A stretch of 64,000 nucleotides of DNA from NCBI GenBank assembly GCA_045114775.1, contig JBGULC010000028.1:20483-84482 (forward strand), read 5' to 3'. Shown one piece after another: positions 7,533 through 63,887 of the stretch (positions within the stretch are counted from its first letter, which is position 1; the number at the start of each line of letters is the position of its first letter). This DNA is from Christensenellales bacterium (GTDB lineage: Bacteria > Bacillota > Clostridia > Christensenellales > CAG-138). The notes below the pieces were generated by a model. The model saw only the letters and a program-made list of their open reading frames with translations. It was not told the DNA's origin and did no database searches. The position numbers and the translations under genes were made by a program.

Positions 7533-7566
7533 GCCCCGATTTTTCAGCTTTTTCACTTTGCGCAGG

Positions 7567-7602
7567 AAAAGAAAAGAAGATCCTCCGATCGTCCGAAGGA
7601 TC
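7567..7602 (-). terminator. rho-independent terminator after the YARHG gene
   Basis: Minus strand: GATCCTTCG-GACGAT-CGGAGGATC followed by TTCTTTTCTTTT. Confidence 0.6.
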
Positions 7603-7624
7603 CTCGCGTATCCATGTTTTCCGC

Positions 7625-9631
7625 TCAGCCGTTTTTGATCAGGTTTTCGAGGAACTTGATCGTAGTGATATTTCCCTTCGTCGCGGGGAACATCTTCGCA
7701 AGATCATCGGCGCTGACCTTTCCGGTCGGTTTATACCAGCTGTATTTGCTGTAAAACTTCTGATAATTGCTTGAATCGCCGAACTGATGTCCTCCGCGTG
7801 CAAACATTTCGTTTCTTGCATAGCCCAAAAGCTGCAGAAGCGTCAGATCGTCGGTCGCCGGAATATCCCAGAGCTCGTCGTAGCTGACCGATTCCTTCGT
7901 GCTCTTCGGCATCACAAGGCCGTCATCGTTGAACGGGCTTTTGCCCTCGTTCTCCGGGAAGACCATGCTGCCGCCGGAAAGCGTATGGACCTTGTAGTCC
8001 TTCAGATCGTCGATGCTGCGCGCCTTCCCGCTGTCGTTGAACACGGTGAGATGCACATCGTCCGCCTTGTAGCCGGTCTCGTTTTCAAGGTCATATACGT
8101 CTGCGACCAGATATTCGGTTCCGGTCGTCTTGGTGATCGTATACACGATACGGAATGCATTGGCATGCTCGGCAGCCTCGTTGCCGACGGCAAAGTAATT
8201 GTACTTGATCTCGCAGCTCTCGAGATTGCTGCCGTATTTCTGTTCCTTCGCGGCGCGGATCGCCTTGCGGACCTCGGTCTGATCGAAGCCGTACAGCGTG
8301 TCGATCGCGTTTTCGTTGCGCTTCGGCGCGGGAGTCGGTGTATCGCCCACTACGTCGTTGAATGTCGGCCACGGGGACTCAGACGCTTCAGCGTTCTGAT
8401 CCGGCGTCGGTTCCGCCGTGGGCGTCGTTGTAACCGTACCCTCGTGCGCGGCGGTCTCCGCCTCGGTCCAGGTCCACTTCGTATTCTTGATGCCGAGGCC
8501 CGCGGTCTTCAGATCGTCCATAACGGTCGCAAGCGCACTCGTCGTCTGGAACGTATAGCCGTCGTCGCCCTTCTGCACCATAACGCCGAGGCTCCGGATC
8601 GCCCGTAAACCGGGATTCGTCTCAGGATCCGCGTTCGGATCGATGCCGACGTCGGTCAGGATCTTCAGCGTATCAACGTCCGCCGTCCATTCTCCGGCGT
8701 CCGTGCGGCGCGTACAAACATAGAGCGGAAAGTCGATCGTGTCCGTCTTCGTCGGCGGTTCACTTGTCGGCTCGCCTGCGGCGCCCGGTTCGGGCAGCGG
8801 GATGACGGCGCCTTCATGCGTCGCCATCTCCCCTTCGGTCCAGGTCCACTTCGTGTTCACGATCCCGATCCCGGCGTTCTTCAGATCCTCCATGACCGTC
8901 GGAAGCGTACTGGTCGTCTGGAACGCATAGCCTTCCGCGGTCTTCTCCATCGTCACTGCAAGGCTTCTCAAAGCCTTCGCGCCGGCGTTCGTTTCAGGAT
9001 CCGTTTTCGGGTCGATGCCCGCATCCGTAAGCAACCGATACACATCGAGTTTTGCTTCGTAGTCGCCGCTCTCATTGCGGTTTGTGCGAACGTATGAAGC
9101 CAGATCGAGCCTGCTCTTATCGACGGTCGGCTGCGTTTCATCCTGCCGCGGATCGCCCGCCGCTTCCTCGCCCTTCCGTTCAAGCGCCTGCATCTCGGCA
9201 CGGCTGAGCTTCAGGACCACATTCTTGAGTTCGATCCCGTATTTCTTCAGAAAAGCATTGGCGTCCGTCTTTTCATCGAGAACACCCGGGCGGAGCTGCA
9301 GGCTCAGAACGTATGACTCTCCGCTGTTCTGCGCATTTACCATATAGACCAGATTCCTGAGGACCCGGATCTCCGGATACTGATCCGGATGCTTCTCCAG
9401 TTCGCCGGGCGTCGGGTTCATCAGGCGTTCCTCCATGATCAGCCGATCGACATCCAACTCTGCGGTATAGCCGCCGTTGCCGTCGCTCTTGACCACCGTA
9501 TACTCATCCATCCTGATCGTCTGTATGTTCCAGCCGTTGTATATGCCGATCCCGATCAGAACGCCGCAAATCAGAAATACCAACAGCGCGCCGAGGCCGC
9601 CGATCAATCTGCGAATCGATGCATTTGACAT
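7625..9631 (-). CDS. membrane-anchored YARHG-domain protein with three copies of a ~100-aa module
   Basis: C-terminal GYARNEMFARGGHQFGDSSNYQKFYSKYSWYKP (YARHG-type motif). N-terminal TM (LGALLVFLICGVLIGIGI). The start is moved to ATG 9631 behind AAGGAGG, which avoids overlap with the upstream gene. Confidence 0.7.
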   Translation of the reverse strand: MSNASIRRLIGGLGALLVFLICGVLIGIGIYNGWNIQTIRMDEYTVVKSDGNGGYTAELDVDRLIMEERLMNPTPGELEKHPDQYPEIRVLRNLVYMVNAQNSGESYVLSLQLRPGVLDEKTDANAFLKKYGIELKNVVLKLSRAEMQALERKGEEAAGDPRQDETQPTVDKSRLDLASYVRTNRNESGDYEAKLDVYRLLTDAGIDPKTDPETNAGAKALRSLAVTMEKTAEGYAFQTTSTLPTVMEDLKNAGIGIVNTKWTWTEGEMATHEGAVIPLPEPGAAGEPTSEPPTKTDTIDFPLYVCTRRTDAGEWTADVDTLKILTDVGIDPNADPETNPGLRAIRSLGVMVQKGDDGYTFQTTSALATVMDDLKTAGLGIKNTKWTWTEAETAAHEGTVTTTPTAEPTPDQNAEASESPWPTFNDVVGDTPTPAPKRNENAIDTLYGFDQTEVRKAIRAAKEQKYGSNLESCEIKYNYFAVGNEAAEHANAFRIVYTITKTTGTEYLVADVYDLENETGYKADDVHLTVFNDSGKARSIDDLKDYKVHTLSGGSMVFPENEGKSPFNDDGLVMPKSTKESVSYDELWDIPATDDLTLLQLLGYARNEMFARGGHQFGDSSNYQKFYSKYSWYKPTGKVSADDLAKMFPATKGNITTIKFLENLIKNG

Positions 9632-9644
9632 ATCCGTACCTCCT

Positions 9645-10499
9645 TTACACGCGTTTGCCGCAGTAGATGCAGAACGTCGAATCCGCATCGATCCTCTCTC
9701 CGCAGTGCGGACAGTGCATCTGCTGCGGAGCTTCCGGCTGCATCAGCGGTTTTTTTACCATTTCGGGAGAAGGATATGCTTCCCTCGCCGCCGGGCGCTC
9801 CCGGCTTTCATCGTCCATTTCCCCAGCCGGACGGAATCCGGACATGGTCTTCTCCTCTGCATTGCGGAAGGAGGACCGGATCACGGATCTCTGTGCCGGC
9901 GCTTCCGGCTCCTCATGGTAAGCAGGACGCACGGTCTCCTGCGCCGGTCTTTCTTCGCGATATGCGGATCGTACCGGCTCCTGCACGGTTCTTTCCTCGC
10001 GGTATACAGGTCGTATAGGCTCCTGTGCCGGTCTTTGCCCGCTGTACGCTTGTCGAATCGGAACGGATTGCGGCTCCGGGCCGTCCTCCTGATAATACTC
10101 ATACGGCCCTTCATCCTCATCATTCTCGTCCGTATGACGCAGCGCCTTGCGCTGTTTCCGCTTGATCTCGCTCGACCAGGTCTCGTCCGCCTCTGCAGCG
10201 CGCTCCTCCGGGACGGTTTCATCCTCAAGGAACTCGTCCAATTCGTCCTCTTCGTCAAATACTTCATGCTTTTTACGCGAGCCTTCATCGCGGAACGAAA
10301 CGATCGCGATCGTCATGATCACGGCGGCGAGCACGCAGCCGATGCCGATCACAAGCGTCACAAAGCCTGTCTCACGGAAAAGCTGAAAAATCGACCGTCC
10401 GGTAAATGCCGGATTCAGCCGCATCATCAGCAGCGCGAACAGACCGTACAGCAGGGTCGTGACCCCGAAGGTCGCCAAAATGGTTCGGATGGTTTTCAT
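9645..10499 (-). CDS. zinc-ribbon membrane protein with degenerate P-x-YREER repeats
   Basis: Two N-terminal TM helices. Repeats EPIRPVYREERTVQEPVRSAYREERPAQETVRPAYHEE. C-terminal CPHCGERIDADSTFCIYCGKRV. Start ATG 10499 behind AAGGAG. Confidence 0.6.
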   Translation of the reverse strand: MKTIRTILATFGVTTLLYGLFALLMMRLNPAFTGRSIFQLFRETGFVTLVIGIGCVLAAVIMTIAIVSFRDEGSRKKHEVFDEEDELDEFLEDETVPEERAAEADETWSSEIKRKQRKALRHTDENDEDEGPYEYYQEDGPEPQSVPIRQAYSGQRPAQEPIRPVYREERTVQEPVRSAYREERPAQETVRPAYHEEPEAPAQRSVIRSSFRNAEEKTMSGFRPAGEMDDESRERPAAREAYPSPEMVKKPLMQPEAPQQMHCPHCGERIDADSTFCIYCGKRV

Positions 10500-14157: not shown

Positions 14158-14361
14158 TGCCATATCCTCCATATCTGTATCTATATTATTATGCCATAAA
14201 CTGCGGCGTTTGAAAAGCTTTTTTTAACCGTTTTCGGCTACGTTTCGTATATGTATGCGAGAGAGTACGAATCCGTCCCTCGCGCCGCTTTGTTTGTCGA
14301 AACCATCTTTCGCCCCGTTTCGTATGTTATGCTCGCCAAAAACCGTTCCGGAGGCGATCCC

Positions 14362-16307: not shown

Positions 16308-19889
<3,582 letters not shown>

Positions 19890-59409: not shown

Positions 59410-60090
59410 TCAATCCCCATCCCGGCGAAGCGCGTGCACCGTGTACTGTACGGTGTAACTGCCCAGACACCGGATCTTTCCGCGTGACAGACAGATCCAT
59501 CGTCCGCTGTTTTTCAGCTCGTTTACATACAGACAGTTCAGATAATAGATGCGCACCGGCTTCGTGCAGACGGTTTCCAGTAAGCCGACAAAAGCGCGGA
59601 AAACGGTTCGATCAAACGGATTGAACAGATAAACGGCGGTCGCATCCCGAAGCAGCTCACCCTGCTCAAGCACATTACCGCAGCATATCGTAACGTTCGG
59701 GCAGGACGCCGTGCGCTGCCTTGCCGTTTCTGCTGCATCCGTATCCAGTTCGATTCCGATCGCTCTGCCGCGGAACCCCTTTGCATACAGATATGTCAAT
59801 ACCCGACCGCCGCCGCAGCCAACGTCTATAAAGACGTCGTCCGGCTGCACCGGCACTTCCCGAAATATGCGCTTCAGGCAGCGGTAATCGGAGCTTAGTG
59901 TGGCATATGCACCCTGATCGGGATGCTTTGACGGAATTCTTTGATTGACTGCTATGCCGCCGAACCGCTTGTCGCTGCGCACCGCAAAAAAAGAGTATAA
60001 TCGCTGCGGCAGGAACGCGGTCCCTTTTTTCCAAATCTTCCGGAACTCTCCTTTCCGGATCAGCTGCATCAGCGTTTTTATGCGGCTCAT
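59410..60090 (-). CDS. class I SAM-dependent methyltransferase
   Basis: Motif I VFIDVGCGGGRVLTYL, with an acidic residue at GIELD. Confidence 0.75.
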   Translation of the reverse strand: MSRIKTLMQLIRKGEFRKIWKKGTAFLPQRLYSFFAVRSDKRFGGIAVNQRIPSKHPDQGAYATLSSDYRCLKRIFREVPVQPDDVFIDVGCGGGRVLTYLYAKGFRGRAIGIELDTDAAETARQRTASCPNVTICCGNVLEQGELLRDATAVYLFNPFDRTVFRAFVGLLETVCTKPVRIYYLNCLYVNELKNSGRWICLSRGKIRCLGSYTVQYTVHALRRDGD

Positions 60091-60124: not shown

Positions 60125-60171
60125 CTGAATATAAGAATTCGGTTCCGCATGAACCTTCATGCAGAACCGAA
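60125..60171 (-). terminator. orphaned native terminator of the rubrerythrin gene
   Basis: Minus strand: TTCGGTTCTGCATGAA-GG-TTCATGCGGAACCGAA (16-bp stem, one G-U) followed by TTCTTATATTC. It begins 18 nt after the stop of the displaced rbr fragment. Confidence 0.55.
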
Positions 60172-60188
60172 CGATCCAATGCTGCTTC

Positions 60189-60254
60189 TTATTTGAAGTA
60201 TCTCTCCAGGAGACCCTTCAGCGCCTTGCCGTGTCTTGCCTCGTCGCGCGCCAT
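60189..60254 (-). pseudogene. displaced native 3' end of the rubrerythrin gene (attL-side repeat)
   Basis: The minus strand translates to [21 protein letters not shown], identical to the C-terminus of 63118..63663. Homology stops exactly at the Met codon (upstream reads ...RSNQ). Confidence 0.75.
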
Positions 60255-60446
60255 TTGATTGCTTCGCACTGCTTGCAATCAAGGGGGGATGCTTCAAAAC
60301 GCGAACAGCACAACAAAGGACTTCCTTGATATAAGTTTAGCACATCTCCAAACAAATGTCCACATCTCTTGGACAACTTATGTTCAAGAAATCTCATCTT
60401 TGTTACAATAAAAGCCACACTTTGGACAACAAAGGAGGTTTTTTCT

Positions 60447-61661
60447 ATGGCAAACAACAAAGATTCTGGCATTTTCAAGCTGGAAAATGGAAACTGGGGA
60501 TTTCGGTTCGTCATAACAGTAGATGGTAAAAAGATTAGCAGCCGAAAATCCACCGATGAGTTTGGAAACAAACTCAAAACTAAGAAGCAAGCAGTCAAGG
60601 CAAGGGAAAAGGCGATTGCAGAAGCGCGGATTGAGCGTGAGCGTCAGCACAAAATTTCCAGAAGGACAGTCGAAGAAGTCTATGACGAATACTGTGAAAA
60701 GGGACGCGCGGGGCGTGCCTACATGACGATCCGCAAACAGGATTGTATGTGGAGGAATCACATCAAGGCGTCCTTCGGCAAGCGCTTCATTGATGAAATC
60801 AACGTTGCTGAAATCAATGATTATCTTGCAGAAAAATACTACAAGGATGGGTATTCTTTCCGCTATACCGAAAGCTTCCTCAAAATGTTTTATCTGATCT
60901 TCGGGCAAGCGTATTCCAGGGACTATCTGGACGTGGACAGCTACAACAAGCTTTGCTTGAACAAGAACACAAAAATCCACATGCCGAAGCTGAAAGCCGA
61001 TGATGATACCGATATTGTGGCTTTCACACGCGAAGAAATGCGGATTCTAGATGCGTATTTCAAAGGCACCAATGCCGAAACCGCTTACCTCCTGGGAATG
61101 TATTGCGGCTTACGCATCAATGAGGCATTTGGGCTGAAATGGGATCATGTGGACTTAGAAGCTGGAACCATTCTGATTGATCGCCAACAACAGTATCAAG
61201 ACAGCCTCATCAAGCTCGTTCCTGTGAAAACGCGCAACGGCAACCGCACAGTTTACCTGAGCGACAGAATGAAAGCGTACTTTCAAGAATTGGCGTCTCG
61301 ACGGGCGGATTTCGCGGTCAAGTACAAAGCAGTGCGCGAACAGAAGCAGCGTTTCATTGAGGATTTAGATGGCAAGAAGATTTCTTCCACTGAATTGGTG
61401 AATTGTCTCCCCGACGGTACGATCCAGACAGTGAACAGCATGAAGTACCCCACCAGGCACATCAAAGAAACGCTGGGGATTGATTTCAAGTATCACTATC
61501 TGCGCCACACCTTCGGAACGCGCATGGCAGAATTGAACACCCCTGAACACTTGTTATTGGCGCAAATGGGGCATGGCAATATTCATGTGACACAACTCTA
61601 TTATCTTGCGGTCACGAAAACAGGCGTGGATGTGCTGCAAGAGAATTTGAACAAGCTATAA
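60447..61661 (+). CDS. int: tyrosine-type site-specific integrase with an N-terminal AP2-like arm-binding domain
   Basis: N-terminus GIFKLENGNWGFRFVITVDGKKISSRKSTDEFGNKLKTKKQA. Box I GLRINEAFGLKWDHVD. HYLRHTFGTRMA. GHGNIHVTQLYY (Tyr nucleophile). Start ATG 60447 behind AAAGGAGG. Confidence 0.9.
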   Translation: MANNKDSGIFKLENGNWGFRFVITVDGKKISSRKSTDEFGNKLKTKKQAVKAREKAIAEARIERERQHKISRRTVEEVYDEYCEKGRAGRAYMTIRKQDCMWRNHIKASFGKRFIDEINVAEINDYLAEKYYKDGYSFRYTESFLKMFYLIFGQAYSRDYLDVDSYNKLCLNKNTKIHMPKLKADDDTDIVAFTREEMRILDAYFKGTNAETAYLLGMYCGLRINEAFGLKWDHVDLEAGTILIDRQQQYQDSLIKLVPVKTRNGNRTVYLSDRMKAYFQELASRRADFAVKYKAVREQKQRFIEDLDGKKISSTELVNCLPDGTIQTVNSMKYPTRHIKETLGIDFKYHYLRHTFGTRMAELNTPEHLLLAQMGHGNIHVTQLYYLAVTKTGVDVLQENLNKL

Positions 61662-61669
61662 TGCAGAAA

Positions 61670-61723
61670 CCCCCGAAAGGTTTTCCCTCCATCCTTTTTC
61701 TTATGTGGAAAACCTTTCGGGGG
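61670..61723. terminator. bidirectional terminator between convergent int and WYL genes
   Basis: Perfect 17-bp stem CCCCCGAAAGGTTTTCC (61670-61686) / GGAAAACCTTTCGGGGG (61707-61723). Confidence 0.7.
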
Positions 61724-61738
61724 ACGCGCGGCGCAAGG

Positions 61739-62575
61739 TCAATACATTTCTCGAATTCTATCCATGTACGCTGTAAAATCATCTACTACCGATTGCGGCG
61801 AAATAATCTTGGCACGTCTGCCGAAGCCCAGGAGCCATCCAAAGAATTGATCGCTGATTTCCACGTCTGTCCACAGAAGGAAATGGTTTTCATCGTCTTT
61901 GGTGTAATCTGTACCGCCACCAGTACCGAAACGCTCTATGACCGCATCCAGCAGCGGATTGATGAAGCGGATCGTGACGCGCTCATGCCGCCCTTCAAAC
62001 ATGGAGAAGGTGCGTTTGGTGAATTCTTTGATGTTTAGCGCGGCGTATTCATCTTTACCATCGCGCGGCTTATCGTCCAGAATATTCACTTCGCGCATAC
62101 GATCCACGCGGTATGTCCGCATTTGTTGGCTCTTGTCATCGAACGCCAACAGATAATAGTTTCCATCATTCATCAAAAGCTTGTAAGGGCTTACGATATA
62201 TTCTGCACCCTTGCGGCGATCCACTTGCTTCTTTACATCATTGATGGTGTATTTCTGGTATTTGAAGCTGATCTTCGATGGCTCGCGCTTGACCCCTCCA
62301 ACCTCTTTCTGCATTGCGCTGTTGATTGTGCTTACATTGTTGAAGGTGTATTTGTTATCAGTCTTGCGGCGATCCACCATCTCCACATCATGCCTGATTT
62401 CCTGAGCTTGATGTTCGCTGACAAAGCCGCAAAGCAAATCAACAAAGGTTTTCGCCTGTTTCTCTGTCAGGAATTTCGTGGCATAAATCGCCTCTGCCGC
62501 AAGCTTGATCTCATCTGGCTCATAGCGGTGTTCTTTCACATAAAAGCCCTTTTCTTGGCTGCATTGATGTAACAA
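61739..62575 (-). CDS. WYL-domain transcriptional regulator, N-terminally truncated or frameshifted
   Basis: WYL core GNYYLLAFDDKSQQMRTYRVDRMREVNIL. The ORF opens at a TTG with an in-frame stop 10 codons upstream. A 48-codon ORF (62536..62682) with its own RBS covers the missing N-terminus in another frame. Confidence 0.7.
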   Translation of the reverse strand: MLHQCSQEKGFYVKEHRYEPDEIKLAAEAIYATKFLTEKQAKTFVDLLCGFVSEHQAQEIRHDVEMVDRRKTDNKYTFNNVSTINSAMQKEVGGVKREPSKISFKYQKYTINDVKKQVDRRKGAEYIVSPYKLLMNDGNYYLLAFDDKSQQMRTYRVDRMREVNILDDKPRDGKDEYAALNIKEFTKRTFSMFEGRHERVTIRFINPLLDAVIERFGTGGGTDYTKDDENHFLLWTDVEISDQFFGWLLGFGRRAKIISPQSVVDDFTAYMDRIREMY

Positions 62576-63056
62576 GTATTCTGCTCGAAGGAGGCGATTA
62601 CTTTACTGGCAATTTCTTTAGCCTTGTTTGCGCTTCTGTTGCTGGTGAAACTGAGTTCCATTTTGTTATTGAAGATTTCCATTTTCTTTCCTTTCTCTGA
62701 GGGTTTGATTTTTTATTTCCCTCATCTCTTTTGTGATTACAGTATAACATGTGGGGGCAATGAACCTCTGATTATAATCGTACAGGTTCACGTTTTTGTA
62801 ATTTGTTTTTCTGAAAGTGTATCTTCAAAAGAATGAAACATATAAAATGATGTCTCTGTGGTGTAAAAAGCTGTTTAGTTTTGAATTTCTGATGTGCTTT
62901 TTTGCTTTAAGATGTTGCGTTTTTGTTCGATAAATGCTATGATTTTGCTTGCCAAAGTTTGGACAACTTTTCGATGGACAATTTTGAGGGATTTTGACTG
63001 GTTTCGAAAAGGGTATGGACAACTTTTGGACAATGTGTTTTCTTGTATCAAGGCGC

Positions 63057-63090
63057 AAAAAAGAGAGACAGCGCATCCGCTGTCCCTCTC
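63057..63090 (-). terminator. element-borne terminator now serving the rubrerythrin gene
   Basis: Minus strand: GAGAGGGACAGCG-GATG-CGCTGTCTCTC followed by TTTTTTG, 28 nt after the rbr stop. Confidence 0.6.
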
Positions 63091-63117
63091 AAAAATCCCT
63101 ATTTCAGGGTGTTTTGC

Positions 63118-63183
63118 TTATTTGAAATACCTCTCCAGAAGGCCCTTCAGCGCCTTGCCATGTCTTGCTTCGTCGCGCGCCAT
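63118..63183 (-). repeat. attR-side repeat, the element-supplied recoded 3' end of rbr
   Basis: It differs from 60189-60254 at six positions, all synonymous third-codon positions. Four of the six are A/T here, against two in the left copy. Confidence 0.8.
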
Positions 63184-63663
63184 CTCGTGGACGGTGTCGT
63201 GGATCGCGTCAAGACCGAGCTCCTTTGCACGCTTTGCGAGGTCCGTCTTGCCCGCGGTCGCGCCGTATTCGGCTTCCACGCGCATTTCGAGGTTCTTCTT
63301 GGTGCTGTCGGTCACGACTTCGCCGAGGAGCTCGGCAAACTTTGCCGCATGCTCGGCTTCTTCAAACGCGGCCTTTTCCCAATAGAGACCGATCTCCGGA
63401 TAGCCCTCGCGGTGCGCAACTCGCGCCATGGCAAGATACATGCCGACTTCGGTGCATTCGCCCTGGAAATTGGCGCGCAGATCGTTGAGGATATCCTCGC
63501 GGACGCCCTTCGCAACGCCGACGACGTGCTCCGCCGCCCAGACCATTTCTTCCTTCACCTCGTTGAACTTCGACGCGGGCTGCTTGCAGACCGGGCAGAA
63601 CTCCGGCGGAGTCGCGCCTTCATGAACGTAACCGCAAACGCTGCAAATCCACTTCTTGATCAT
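63118..63663 (-). CDS. rbr: rubrerythrin with an N-terminal rubredoxin-like domain (reverse rubrerythrin arrangement)
   Basis: [10 protein letters not shown]...FCPVCKQP (two CxxC motifs), then a ferritin-like diiron domain with EEAEH and DEARH ExxH motifs. Confidence 0.9.
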
Positions 63664-63779: not shown

Positions 63780-63808
63780 TTGACAGTCTCCCGTTTGCGT
63801 GGTATCAT
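63780..63808 (+). promoter_or_regulatory. near-consensus promoter facing the tRNA-like fragment
   Basis: TTGACA (63780-63785), 17 nt, TGgTATCAT (-10 at 63803-63808). Confidence 0.5.
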
Positions 63809-63823
63809 ATCGATGTTTGCGAC

Positions 63824-63887
63824 GGGTCGGTATAGCTCGGTCGGATAGGCCATTCGCCTCCTAAGCGGGAGGCCGCGCGTTCGAAAT
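63824..63887 (+). pseudogene. tRNA-Arg(CCT)-like 5' fragment with no T-stem or acceptor 3' half
   Basis: GGGTCGGTATAGCTCGGTCGGATAGGCCATTCGCCTCCTAAGCGGGAGGCCGCGCGTTCGAAAT has a D-arm, an anticodon arm (loop CTCCTAA) and a GTTCGAAA T-loop. The following TTGCCGGCTACA cannot pair with GCGCG or with the acceptor 5' strand. Confidence 0.4.

Follow-up and report, generated by a model that had tools for sequence, protein, structure and literature searches.

We analyzed a 64,000-nt stretch of a Christensenellales genome (GenBank assembly GCA_045114775.1, contig JBGULC010000028.1, positions 20,483 to 84,482), referred to here as the window, and focused on positions 60189–63183, where a tyrosine integrase gene lies between two copies of the 3′ end of a gene for the oxidative-stress protein rubrerythrin. 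We put at about 0.85 the probability that this segment is a degenerate integrative island, which would have entered the last ~20 codons of the rubrerythrin gene by site-specific recombination, rebuilt the gene, and survived as a decayed member of a wider family. The mechanism is of the known e14/icd type; rubrerythrin as the target seems to be unreported.

Duplicated gene end and integrase

The element is delimited by direct repeats at 60189–60254 and 63118–63183 that are identical at 60 of 66 positions without gaps (61 of 67 with one extra base; BLASTN E ~9e-20), which gives a length of 2,929 bp from repeat to repeat. Read on the minus strand, both repeats translate to the same 21 residues, and the six mismatches (GAG/GAA, CAC/CAT, GGT/GGC, CTC/CTT, AGA/AGG, and TAC/TAT) are all synonymous third-position changes. 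Since synonymous changes make up only 22% of the single-base substitutions possible in these codons, six out of six would arise under neutrality with a probability of ~1e-4; the copies therefore diverged while both were functional gene ends, not after one of them had become a fragment. Upstream, similarity ends at the codon for Met161 (...HEM versus ...SNQM); downstream, it ends one base past the stop codon.

The right-hand repeat closes the live rubrerythrin gene (63118–63663, minus strand), whose 181-amino-acid product contains the domains RUBY_RBDX (residues 5–33) and Rubrerythrin (62–175) and the ExxH motifs EEAEH and DEARH. The protein has the 'reverse' domain order, with the rubredoxin-like domain at the N-terminus and the diiron four-helix domain at the C-terminus, and the repeat starts four codons ahead of the second motif, DEARH. 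The left-hand repeat (attL, minus strand) is a displaced rubrerythrin 3′ fragment of codons 161–181 plus stop, of which codons 161–163 may originate in the element's P arm. The right-hand repeat (attR, minus strand) consists of the same codons as now in use and would be element-supplied from about codon 165 on.

Each copy is followed by its own hairpin on the minus strand. The one after the displaced native end (60137–60172; 16-bp stem, weak U tract, −30.9 kcal/mol, z −4.8) sits just upstream of a host methyltransferase gene (59410–60090). The terminator region behind the live gene (63055–63109), which would be element-borne, comprises a small hairpin (63097–63109) and then a larger one (63061–63090) with 13 bp in the stem and UUUUUU behind it (−32.5 kcal/mol, z −5.2). 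Relatives have the same flank pattern at their right ends. The GC content was ~0.55–0.61 in the flanks and 0.33–0.50 between 60.25 and 63.1 kb, that is, exactly between the repeats. GC content at third codon positions was 0.76 in the left copy and 0.67 in the right one, and the log-likelihood ratio for codon usage (1.4) was too weak to assign the copies to host and element.

An intact tyrosine integrase gene (404 amino acids; 60447–61661, plus strand) begins the interior. Its product matched Pfam Phage_integrase (1.1e-16), a SAM-like domain (4e-5), and PHROG 1 (5e-43), and has the R-K-H-x-x-R-H/W-Y catalytic domain of tyrosine recombinases. Thousands of homologues were found, and the exact sequence was on record on one contig, plus its own sample. 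In a scan of one genome per species, we collected 25 loci with integrases 52–86% identical to it (loci are denoted by L and a number). The window integrase retains all 96 residues that are invariant across these relatives, including R223, K261, H350, R353, H376, and Y385/Y386. The closest known phage integrases were at most 25% identical, and no characterised close relative was found; the nearest solved structure was Tn1549 Int (6emz/6en0, E ~3e-5, catalytic domain only).

An earlier note on this DNA had described the repeats, their abrupt edge at the Met codon, a terminator hairpin for each copy, a left copy with the more host-like third positions, and an AT-richer interior starting with a tyrosine integrase. 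We re-derived the repeats with their identity, shared translation, and six synonymous differences; the edge lies where it had been placed, folding recovered both hairpins, and the composition scan and domain searches agree on the interior, with the expected shifts at 60.25 and 63.1 kb. The third positions lean only slightly in the direction proposed.

A motif that could guide the integrase is repeated at both ends of the element. Two TGGACAAC copies lie in the promoter/leader region of the integrase gene (60370–60377 and 60423–60430, plus strand), and four copies of TGGACAAY lie in the right (P′) arm (starting at 62960, 62975, 63016, and 63027, the last ending at 63034, plus strand), oriented like the left pair and within ~500 bp of AT-rich DNA. 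All six copies in the element are on one strand, none farther than 190 nt from an element end; four more occur in the remaining 61 kb of the window, against 2.7 predicted by shuffling for the window as a whole. Lambda- or Tn916-like integrases have arm-type binding sites laid out in this way, and we regard the repeats as candidate arm-type sites on that ground. Relatives possess equivalent repeated 7–10-mers at both ends, for example GGTACAACTT, which occurs 4 + 4 times in L019.

A family of elements at the rubrerythrin 3′ end

The relatives came mostly from uncultured rumen or gut Clostridia and included the cultured Oribacterium sp. KHPX15. Homologous integrases next to rubrerythrin 3′ ends, a prediction of the earlier note, proved to be the rule: of the 23 relatives with at least 300 nt upstream of the integrase, 20 had a rubrerythrin C-terminal fragment (~17–25 codons) 150–300 bp upstream of the integrase gene and on the opposite strand. 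On contigs of sufficient reach, a complete rubrerythrin gene was present at the far end at 2.5 kb (L021), 3.4 kb (L009), 4.0 kb (L031), 4.6 kb (L045), ~5 kb (L018), 8.1 kb (L047 and L048), 8.9 kb (L014), and 9.1 kb (L019). The window element shares this e14/icd-type layout, with direct repeats of a gene 3′ end, one in the live gene and one in a fragment, and an integrase gene beside one of them. Across nine attL/attR pairs, 58 codon differences were synonymous and 16 nonsynonymous, and 10 of the latter fell in the non-homologous P-arm codons 161–164 of L009, L014, and L031.

A hairpin at the inner edge of attL also recurred. In the window, it spans 60255–60282 (TTGATTGC, 12 nt, GCAATCAA), with GCGAAGC in the loop. 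In relatives, a hairpin of 7–8 bp directly precedes the start of rubrerythrin homology (L008 7791–7825, L011 7732–7750, L012 7761–7782, L013 7838–7863, L021 7776–7794, L036 9781–9806, L045 ~9720–9745, and L047 9827–9852). At least six different stem sequences were seen with pairing kept; the loop is GCGAAGC or a GNA triloop, a C-run often precedes the hairpin, and it is no terminator in either orientation.

Two of the integrase relatives, L020 and L025 (61% and 54% identical; matches 8001–9149 and 8001–9212, respectively), showed neither a rubrerythrin gene nor a fragment of one within 8 kb; their target may be a different one, or their site may be rearranged.

Among the nearest relatives of the window host, the rubrerythrin gene lies next to the same methyltransferase gene as in the window. 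In L039, which represents a different species (rubrerythrin gene 88.6% identical in nucleotides, methyltransferase 70% in amino acids), the order is rubrerythrin, 72 nt with one terminator, and methyltransferase, with a single copy of the 3′ end, i.e., the uninterrupted arrangement. Other relatives showed traces of earlier events at this site. In L001 and L002, the same position is occupied by what is left of a related element (~480 bp), including AATGGTACA repeats and the initial codons of a WYL gene. In L040 (113–260), a second C-terminal fragment, starting from codon 164, follows 12 nt after the live stop codon and is itself followed by the methyltransferase gene; this is the scar of a lost island. 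In L036, three rubrerythrin C-terminal fragments (8418–8471, 8914–8952, and 9706–9768) lie to the left of a single integrase gene, two of them with element-type terminators, of which one is nearly identical to the window hairpin (63061–63090). Repeated arrivals would produce such a stack by tandem accretion.

The search for an uninterrupted site, proposed in the earlier note, yielded one in a different species only. For the species of the window itself, an exact look-up of the methyltransferase returned the same sample only, JGI metagenomes scanned for exact 25-nt matches to the native end plus flank gave none, and methyltransferase homologues were at most 82% identical.

Two Logan contigs from SRR25030093 (L003 and L007) abut within attL (60223–60252) with a 30-nt overlap, which corresponds to an assembly-graph branch. 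The position of this break misfits the junction expected of a mixture of occupied and empty sites, and it was not used as evidence.

Native and element-borne ends

Comparisons between relatives indicate that the resident gene end was displaced and is now the fragment beside the integrase, and that the live gene end came with the element. The window and L008, whose integrases are 86% identical, share the inner P arm up to ...GCGAAGCAATCAA, and their fragments are of different types, that of L008 reading KAFAGLLKRYFGK before the stop. L047 and L048 carry one element (integrases 100% identical; 97.2% nucleotide identity over 9.15 kb) next to unrelated left flanks, and their fragments differ. The sole constant part next to the hairpin is CATGAG ATGGCAAGAGACGAGGC (codons 159–165), which differs from the ATGGCTCGTGAYGAGGC of both hosts. 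The occurrence of one element in two host backgrounds points indirectly to mobility of the family. The sequence after the window stop codon (GCAAAAC...AAATAGGG...GAGAGGG hairpin) is found again behind a rubrerythrin end or fragment in L001, L004, L006, L036, L045, and L047/L048, as would be expected of an element arm.

In L045, the live tail (14 residues, with an element-type flank) differs in four residues and in length from the displaced tail, HGKAFQGLLKRYFGE followed by a stop codon and its own terminator; the L045 rubrerythrin is therefore a chimera. In that locus (14245–14300 and 9645–9715), the element tail gives four substitutions and one residue fewer, and in L019 (16606–16660), it adds one Asn to the protein. 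'Restoration' of the gene is therefore inexact in some hosts. The L014 repeat measures 288 bp (7539–7826 and 16471–16758, 91.8% identical), spans the rubrerythrin end, and contains a complete 51-amino-acid rubredoxin gene and a hairpin, so that the element carries a second intact rubredoxin gene; the L014 arm is therefore captured host DNA. The proposal of the earlier note that an element targets the codons of the second ExxH motif and restores the protein with its own copy and terminator gains support from the relatives.

Crossover position and model of integration

The window repeats offer three candidate crossover blocks, ATGGCGCGCGACGA (14 nt), GCAAGACA, and GGCAAGGCGCTGAAGGG. We compared attL and attR in nine pairs and inspected about 30 fragments for the overlap region. 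Homology in attL starts at codon 161 in the window, L008, and L012; at codon 159 in L011, L013, L015, L017, L045, and L047; at codon 156/157 in L021, L036, and L043; at codon 163 in six loci; at codon 164/165 in L009, L014, L031, L032, and L040; and far upstream in L016 and L019, for a family range of codons 119–165. Many attP sites therefore have rubrerythrin-like sequence on both sides, and the crossover does not coincide with the point where homology begins. The comparison left the overlap region unfixed, as no 7-nt block was common to all pairs. The sole usable bracket comes from L047 and L048: sequence that is constant in the element gives way to sequence that varies by host within an interval bounded by the third bases of codons 164 and 166 (GAC GAG GC), which overlaps the last five bases of the 14-nt block. 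A crossover at codons 164–166, give or take a few bases, is our best estimate from these alignments. The 14-nt block, which the earlier note had named as the likely core, stands as a candidate whose 3′ edge overlaps this interval.

We propose that the integrase would bind the TGGACAAY arm repeats at both ends together with a core site in the DEARH codons, and that strand exchange would take place around codons 164–166. The attP would bring the remaining codons, the stop codon, and the terminator, so that the gene would be rebuilt at attR (63118–63183), and the native end with its own hairpin would be moved by 2.9 kb to lie beside the integrase gene as attL (60189–60254). On the minus strand, the predicted attB reads ...ACCGTCCACGAG ATGGCGCGCGACGA joined to GGCAAGACACGGCAAGG...TACTTCAAATAAGAAGCAGCATTGG, and the predicted attP reads ...GTGCGAAGCAATCAA ATGGCGCGCGACGA joined to AGCAAGACATGGCAAGG...TATTTCAAATAAGCAAAACACCC.

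Truncated regulator gene and cargo

Downstream of the integrase gene and convergent with it lies a 5′-truncated WYL-WCX regulator gene (61739–62575, minus strand); the perfect 17-bp inverted repeat between the two genes (61670–61723) is probably a bidirectional terminator. The product matched WYL (3.8e-13) and WCX (4e-8) and lacks the N-terminal DNA-binding part, and thus departs from the helix-turn-helix (HTH)-WYL-WCX type of regulator. Intact WYL homologues beside the integrase in relatives have 363–403 amino acids, and residues 9–278 of the window protein align to residues 112–379 of an intact 379-amino-acid homologue, so that ~111 N-terminal codons are gone. Pfam called no helix-turn-helix in the N-terminal part of the homologues, to which we ascribe a putative DNA-binding role.

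Nucleotide similarity to the WYL gene ends near 62562, and the sequence from ~62675 on matches the right arms of L014, L019, and L001. An open reading frame (ORF) of 48 codons (62536–62682, minus strand) spans the junction. Its last ~8 codons are WYL codons in another frame and the remainder has no homologue, and it was rejected as a gene. In the simplest reading of the window copy, a single deletion from ~62563 to at most 62675 would have removed the cargo together with the first ~111 codons of the WYL gene, leaving an integrase-only remnant.

In close relatives (integrases 82–86% identical), cargo genes lie between the WYL gene and the right end, and these elements measure from 4.6 to >11 kb; elements of the family as a whole range from 2.5 to 11 kb or somewhat more. 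The cargo varied: L036 and the P0007 contig encode a split type IIG-like restriction-modification system (PADLOC 1e-31 to 8e-42 for L036), L044 an Abi_C protein (1e-21), L043 a DUF4411 protein with Peptidase_M78 plus a Dam-type methylase, and other relatives a resolvase, SprT-like, SHOCT, or unknown proteins. The window element itself is devoid of cargo and does not qualify as a defence island; some relatives carry only unknown genes.

Neither the window nor the cargo of L014, L019, L036, L043, L044, L045, and L047, in which many proteins are unannotated, yielded a relaxase or coupling-protein domain; the origin of transfer (oriT) was not searched. Pfam and PHROG gave no matches to phage structural, packaging, replication, or satellite hallmark genes in the window or the relatives examined, and a viral contig collection contained no relative of the element. 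A prophage was rejected on the basis of this last result and the distance to phage integrases.

Alternative explanations

The earlier note had left it open whether the element is a decayed remnant or a minimal satellite. A still-mobile element consisting of an integrase and att sites, with helper functions supplied by full-size relatives, would account for the full-length integrase with every family-invariant residue kept, the repeats retained in both arms, the lack of any nonsynonymous change in either repeat copy, and the existence of small versions (2.5–4.6 kb) in L009, L021, L031, and L045. We nevertheless consider residual mobility of this kind unlikely, as those small relatives are different deletion or cargo variants and not copies of the window element, the integrase sequence was seen on one contig only, plus its own sample, and no excisionase is present. 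The WYL gene is both truncated and frameshifted, which resembles accidental decay, and its ~111 missing codons, the larger relatives, and the single contig favour the decayed remnant. Far less probable is an exchange at the distal 10-nt block TTCAAATAAG around the stop codon, by which the live end would be native and the left fragment element-carried. The repeat does also terminate in an identical block at the stop codon, codon usage assigns the copies unclearly, and L039, with its empty site, has three of the six variants in common with each copy; yet the window and L008 combine near-identical P arms with quite different fragments, which argues that the fragment does not travel with the element. 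Moreover, only codons 159–165 by the hairpin are element-constant between L047 and L048, the sequence after the stop codon recurs next to arm repeats in other hosts and elements, and an insertion after the stop would need no coding copy, yet the repeats bear the mark of purifying selection (58 synonymous versus 16 nonsynonymous differences). As to a local duplication or gene conversion with no mobile element involved, nothing beyond the existence of the repeat speaks for it; the GC shift exactly between the repeats, the integrase gene adjoining one of them, the same layout in dozens of unrelated genomes, and the uninterrupted site in a relative leave it next to no probability.

Several observations weigh against site-specific integration with element-borne restoration as set out above. 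The 3′ coding parts of the repeats are swapped between attL and attR in L047 (~9755–9830 and 17870–17940) relative to L048 (~9754–9830 and 17868–17940), which indicates recombination inside the repeat after or between integrations; synonymous variants can therefore be reshuffled post-integration, and not all six of those in the window need be element-derived. No 7-nt block is identical in all nine attL/attR pairs, and the window pair is mismatched at codon 165, within the estimated crossover interval. The two window copies are barely told apart by codon usage, the case for integrase binding to the TGGACAAY repeats comes from their arrangement, and no excisionase gene was recognisable in the element. 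Finally, neither an empty site in the same species nor an excised circle nor a second copy of the window element was found, the species being nearly absent from searchable collections.

Relation to known elements

The closest parallel comes from Escherichia coli K-12, where e14 (and phage 21) occupies the icd gene. The last codons of icd then come from the element, icdC is what is left of the displaced end, the differences between the copies are mainly synonymous, and the two are recombined upon excision (PMC6379469; PMC13626634, with reference to Hill et al. 1989). Like e14, the window element has a tyrosine integrase, sits in the 3′ end of a protein-coding gene, and has a displaced pseudogene fragment at its other end. 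Unlike e14, it targets rubrerythrin and not icd, duplicates 66 bp as opposed to ~163 bp, resides in anaerobic Clostridia, and has no phage genes and an integrase unrelated in sequence (at most 25% identity to phage integrases).

Streptococcal integrative mobilizable and conjugative elements use the 3′ ends of rpsI, rpmG, rplL, guaA, and similar genes (PMC5357655). They share with the rubrerythrin family the use of family-specific tyrosine integrases on a conserved gene 3′ end and the long direct repeats, and their accretion and decay at the same site (PMC5357655) have equivalents here in L036, L031, L040, and L001. They differ in target and host; moreover, the relatives examined here contained no recognisable relaxase, coupling protein, or oriT (the last not searched). 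Integrases of the Tn1549/Tn916 type have low sequence specificity and rebuild no gene, whereas the window integrase would be site-specific for one gene.

WYL regulators of the BrxR/CapW type accompany phage-defence islands (PMC9122601, PMC9122589). Similarly, full-size relatives of the window element pair an HTH-WYL-WCX-like protein with type IIG restriction-modification or Abi_C cargo. In PADLOC, these proteins matched generic WYL models only, and the window copy is without the DNA-binding part and cargo.

We found no relevant paper on rubrerythrin as an attachment site in the literature searched, which left out most subscription journals. The rebuilding of a gene 3′ end by attP is textbook knowledge since e14/icd, and the window copy is a remnant. 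It is, in our judgement, an even bet that the rubrerythrin 3′ end is an undescribed and widely used landing site for islands of an integrase plus a WYL regulator that shuttle variable, partly anti-phage cargo among gut and rumen Clostridia, together with the rewriting of protein tails (L045 and L019), a spare rubredoxin gene (L014), and, at the attP edge, a hairpin conserved in structure for which described att sites offer no parallel. Many Clostridia assemblies show a short 'rubrerythrin fragment' beside an integrase gene; this fragment now has an explanation, and it provides a simple boundary marker for a family of small islands in rumen and gut anaerobes that have been little studied. Members with restriction-modification or abortive-infection genes under a WYL regulator are candidate mobile defence islands. 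The family could also supply a site-specific integrase with a short conserved target in most anaerobic Firmicutes.

Other features near the element

An Rfam scan of 59.9–64 kb gave no match. Positions 63799–63885 are 80% identical to a tRNA-Arg(CCT) gene located ~1.6 kb past the window end (L003 1–76); neither ARAGORN nor Rfam made a call there. In L001, an integrase fragment lies beside a real tRNA-Arg(CCT) gene. The segment at 63799–63885 may be the scar of another element, one that targets tRNA genes.

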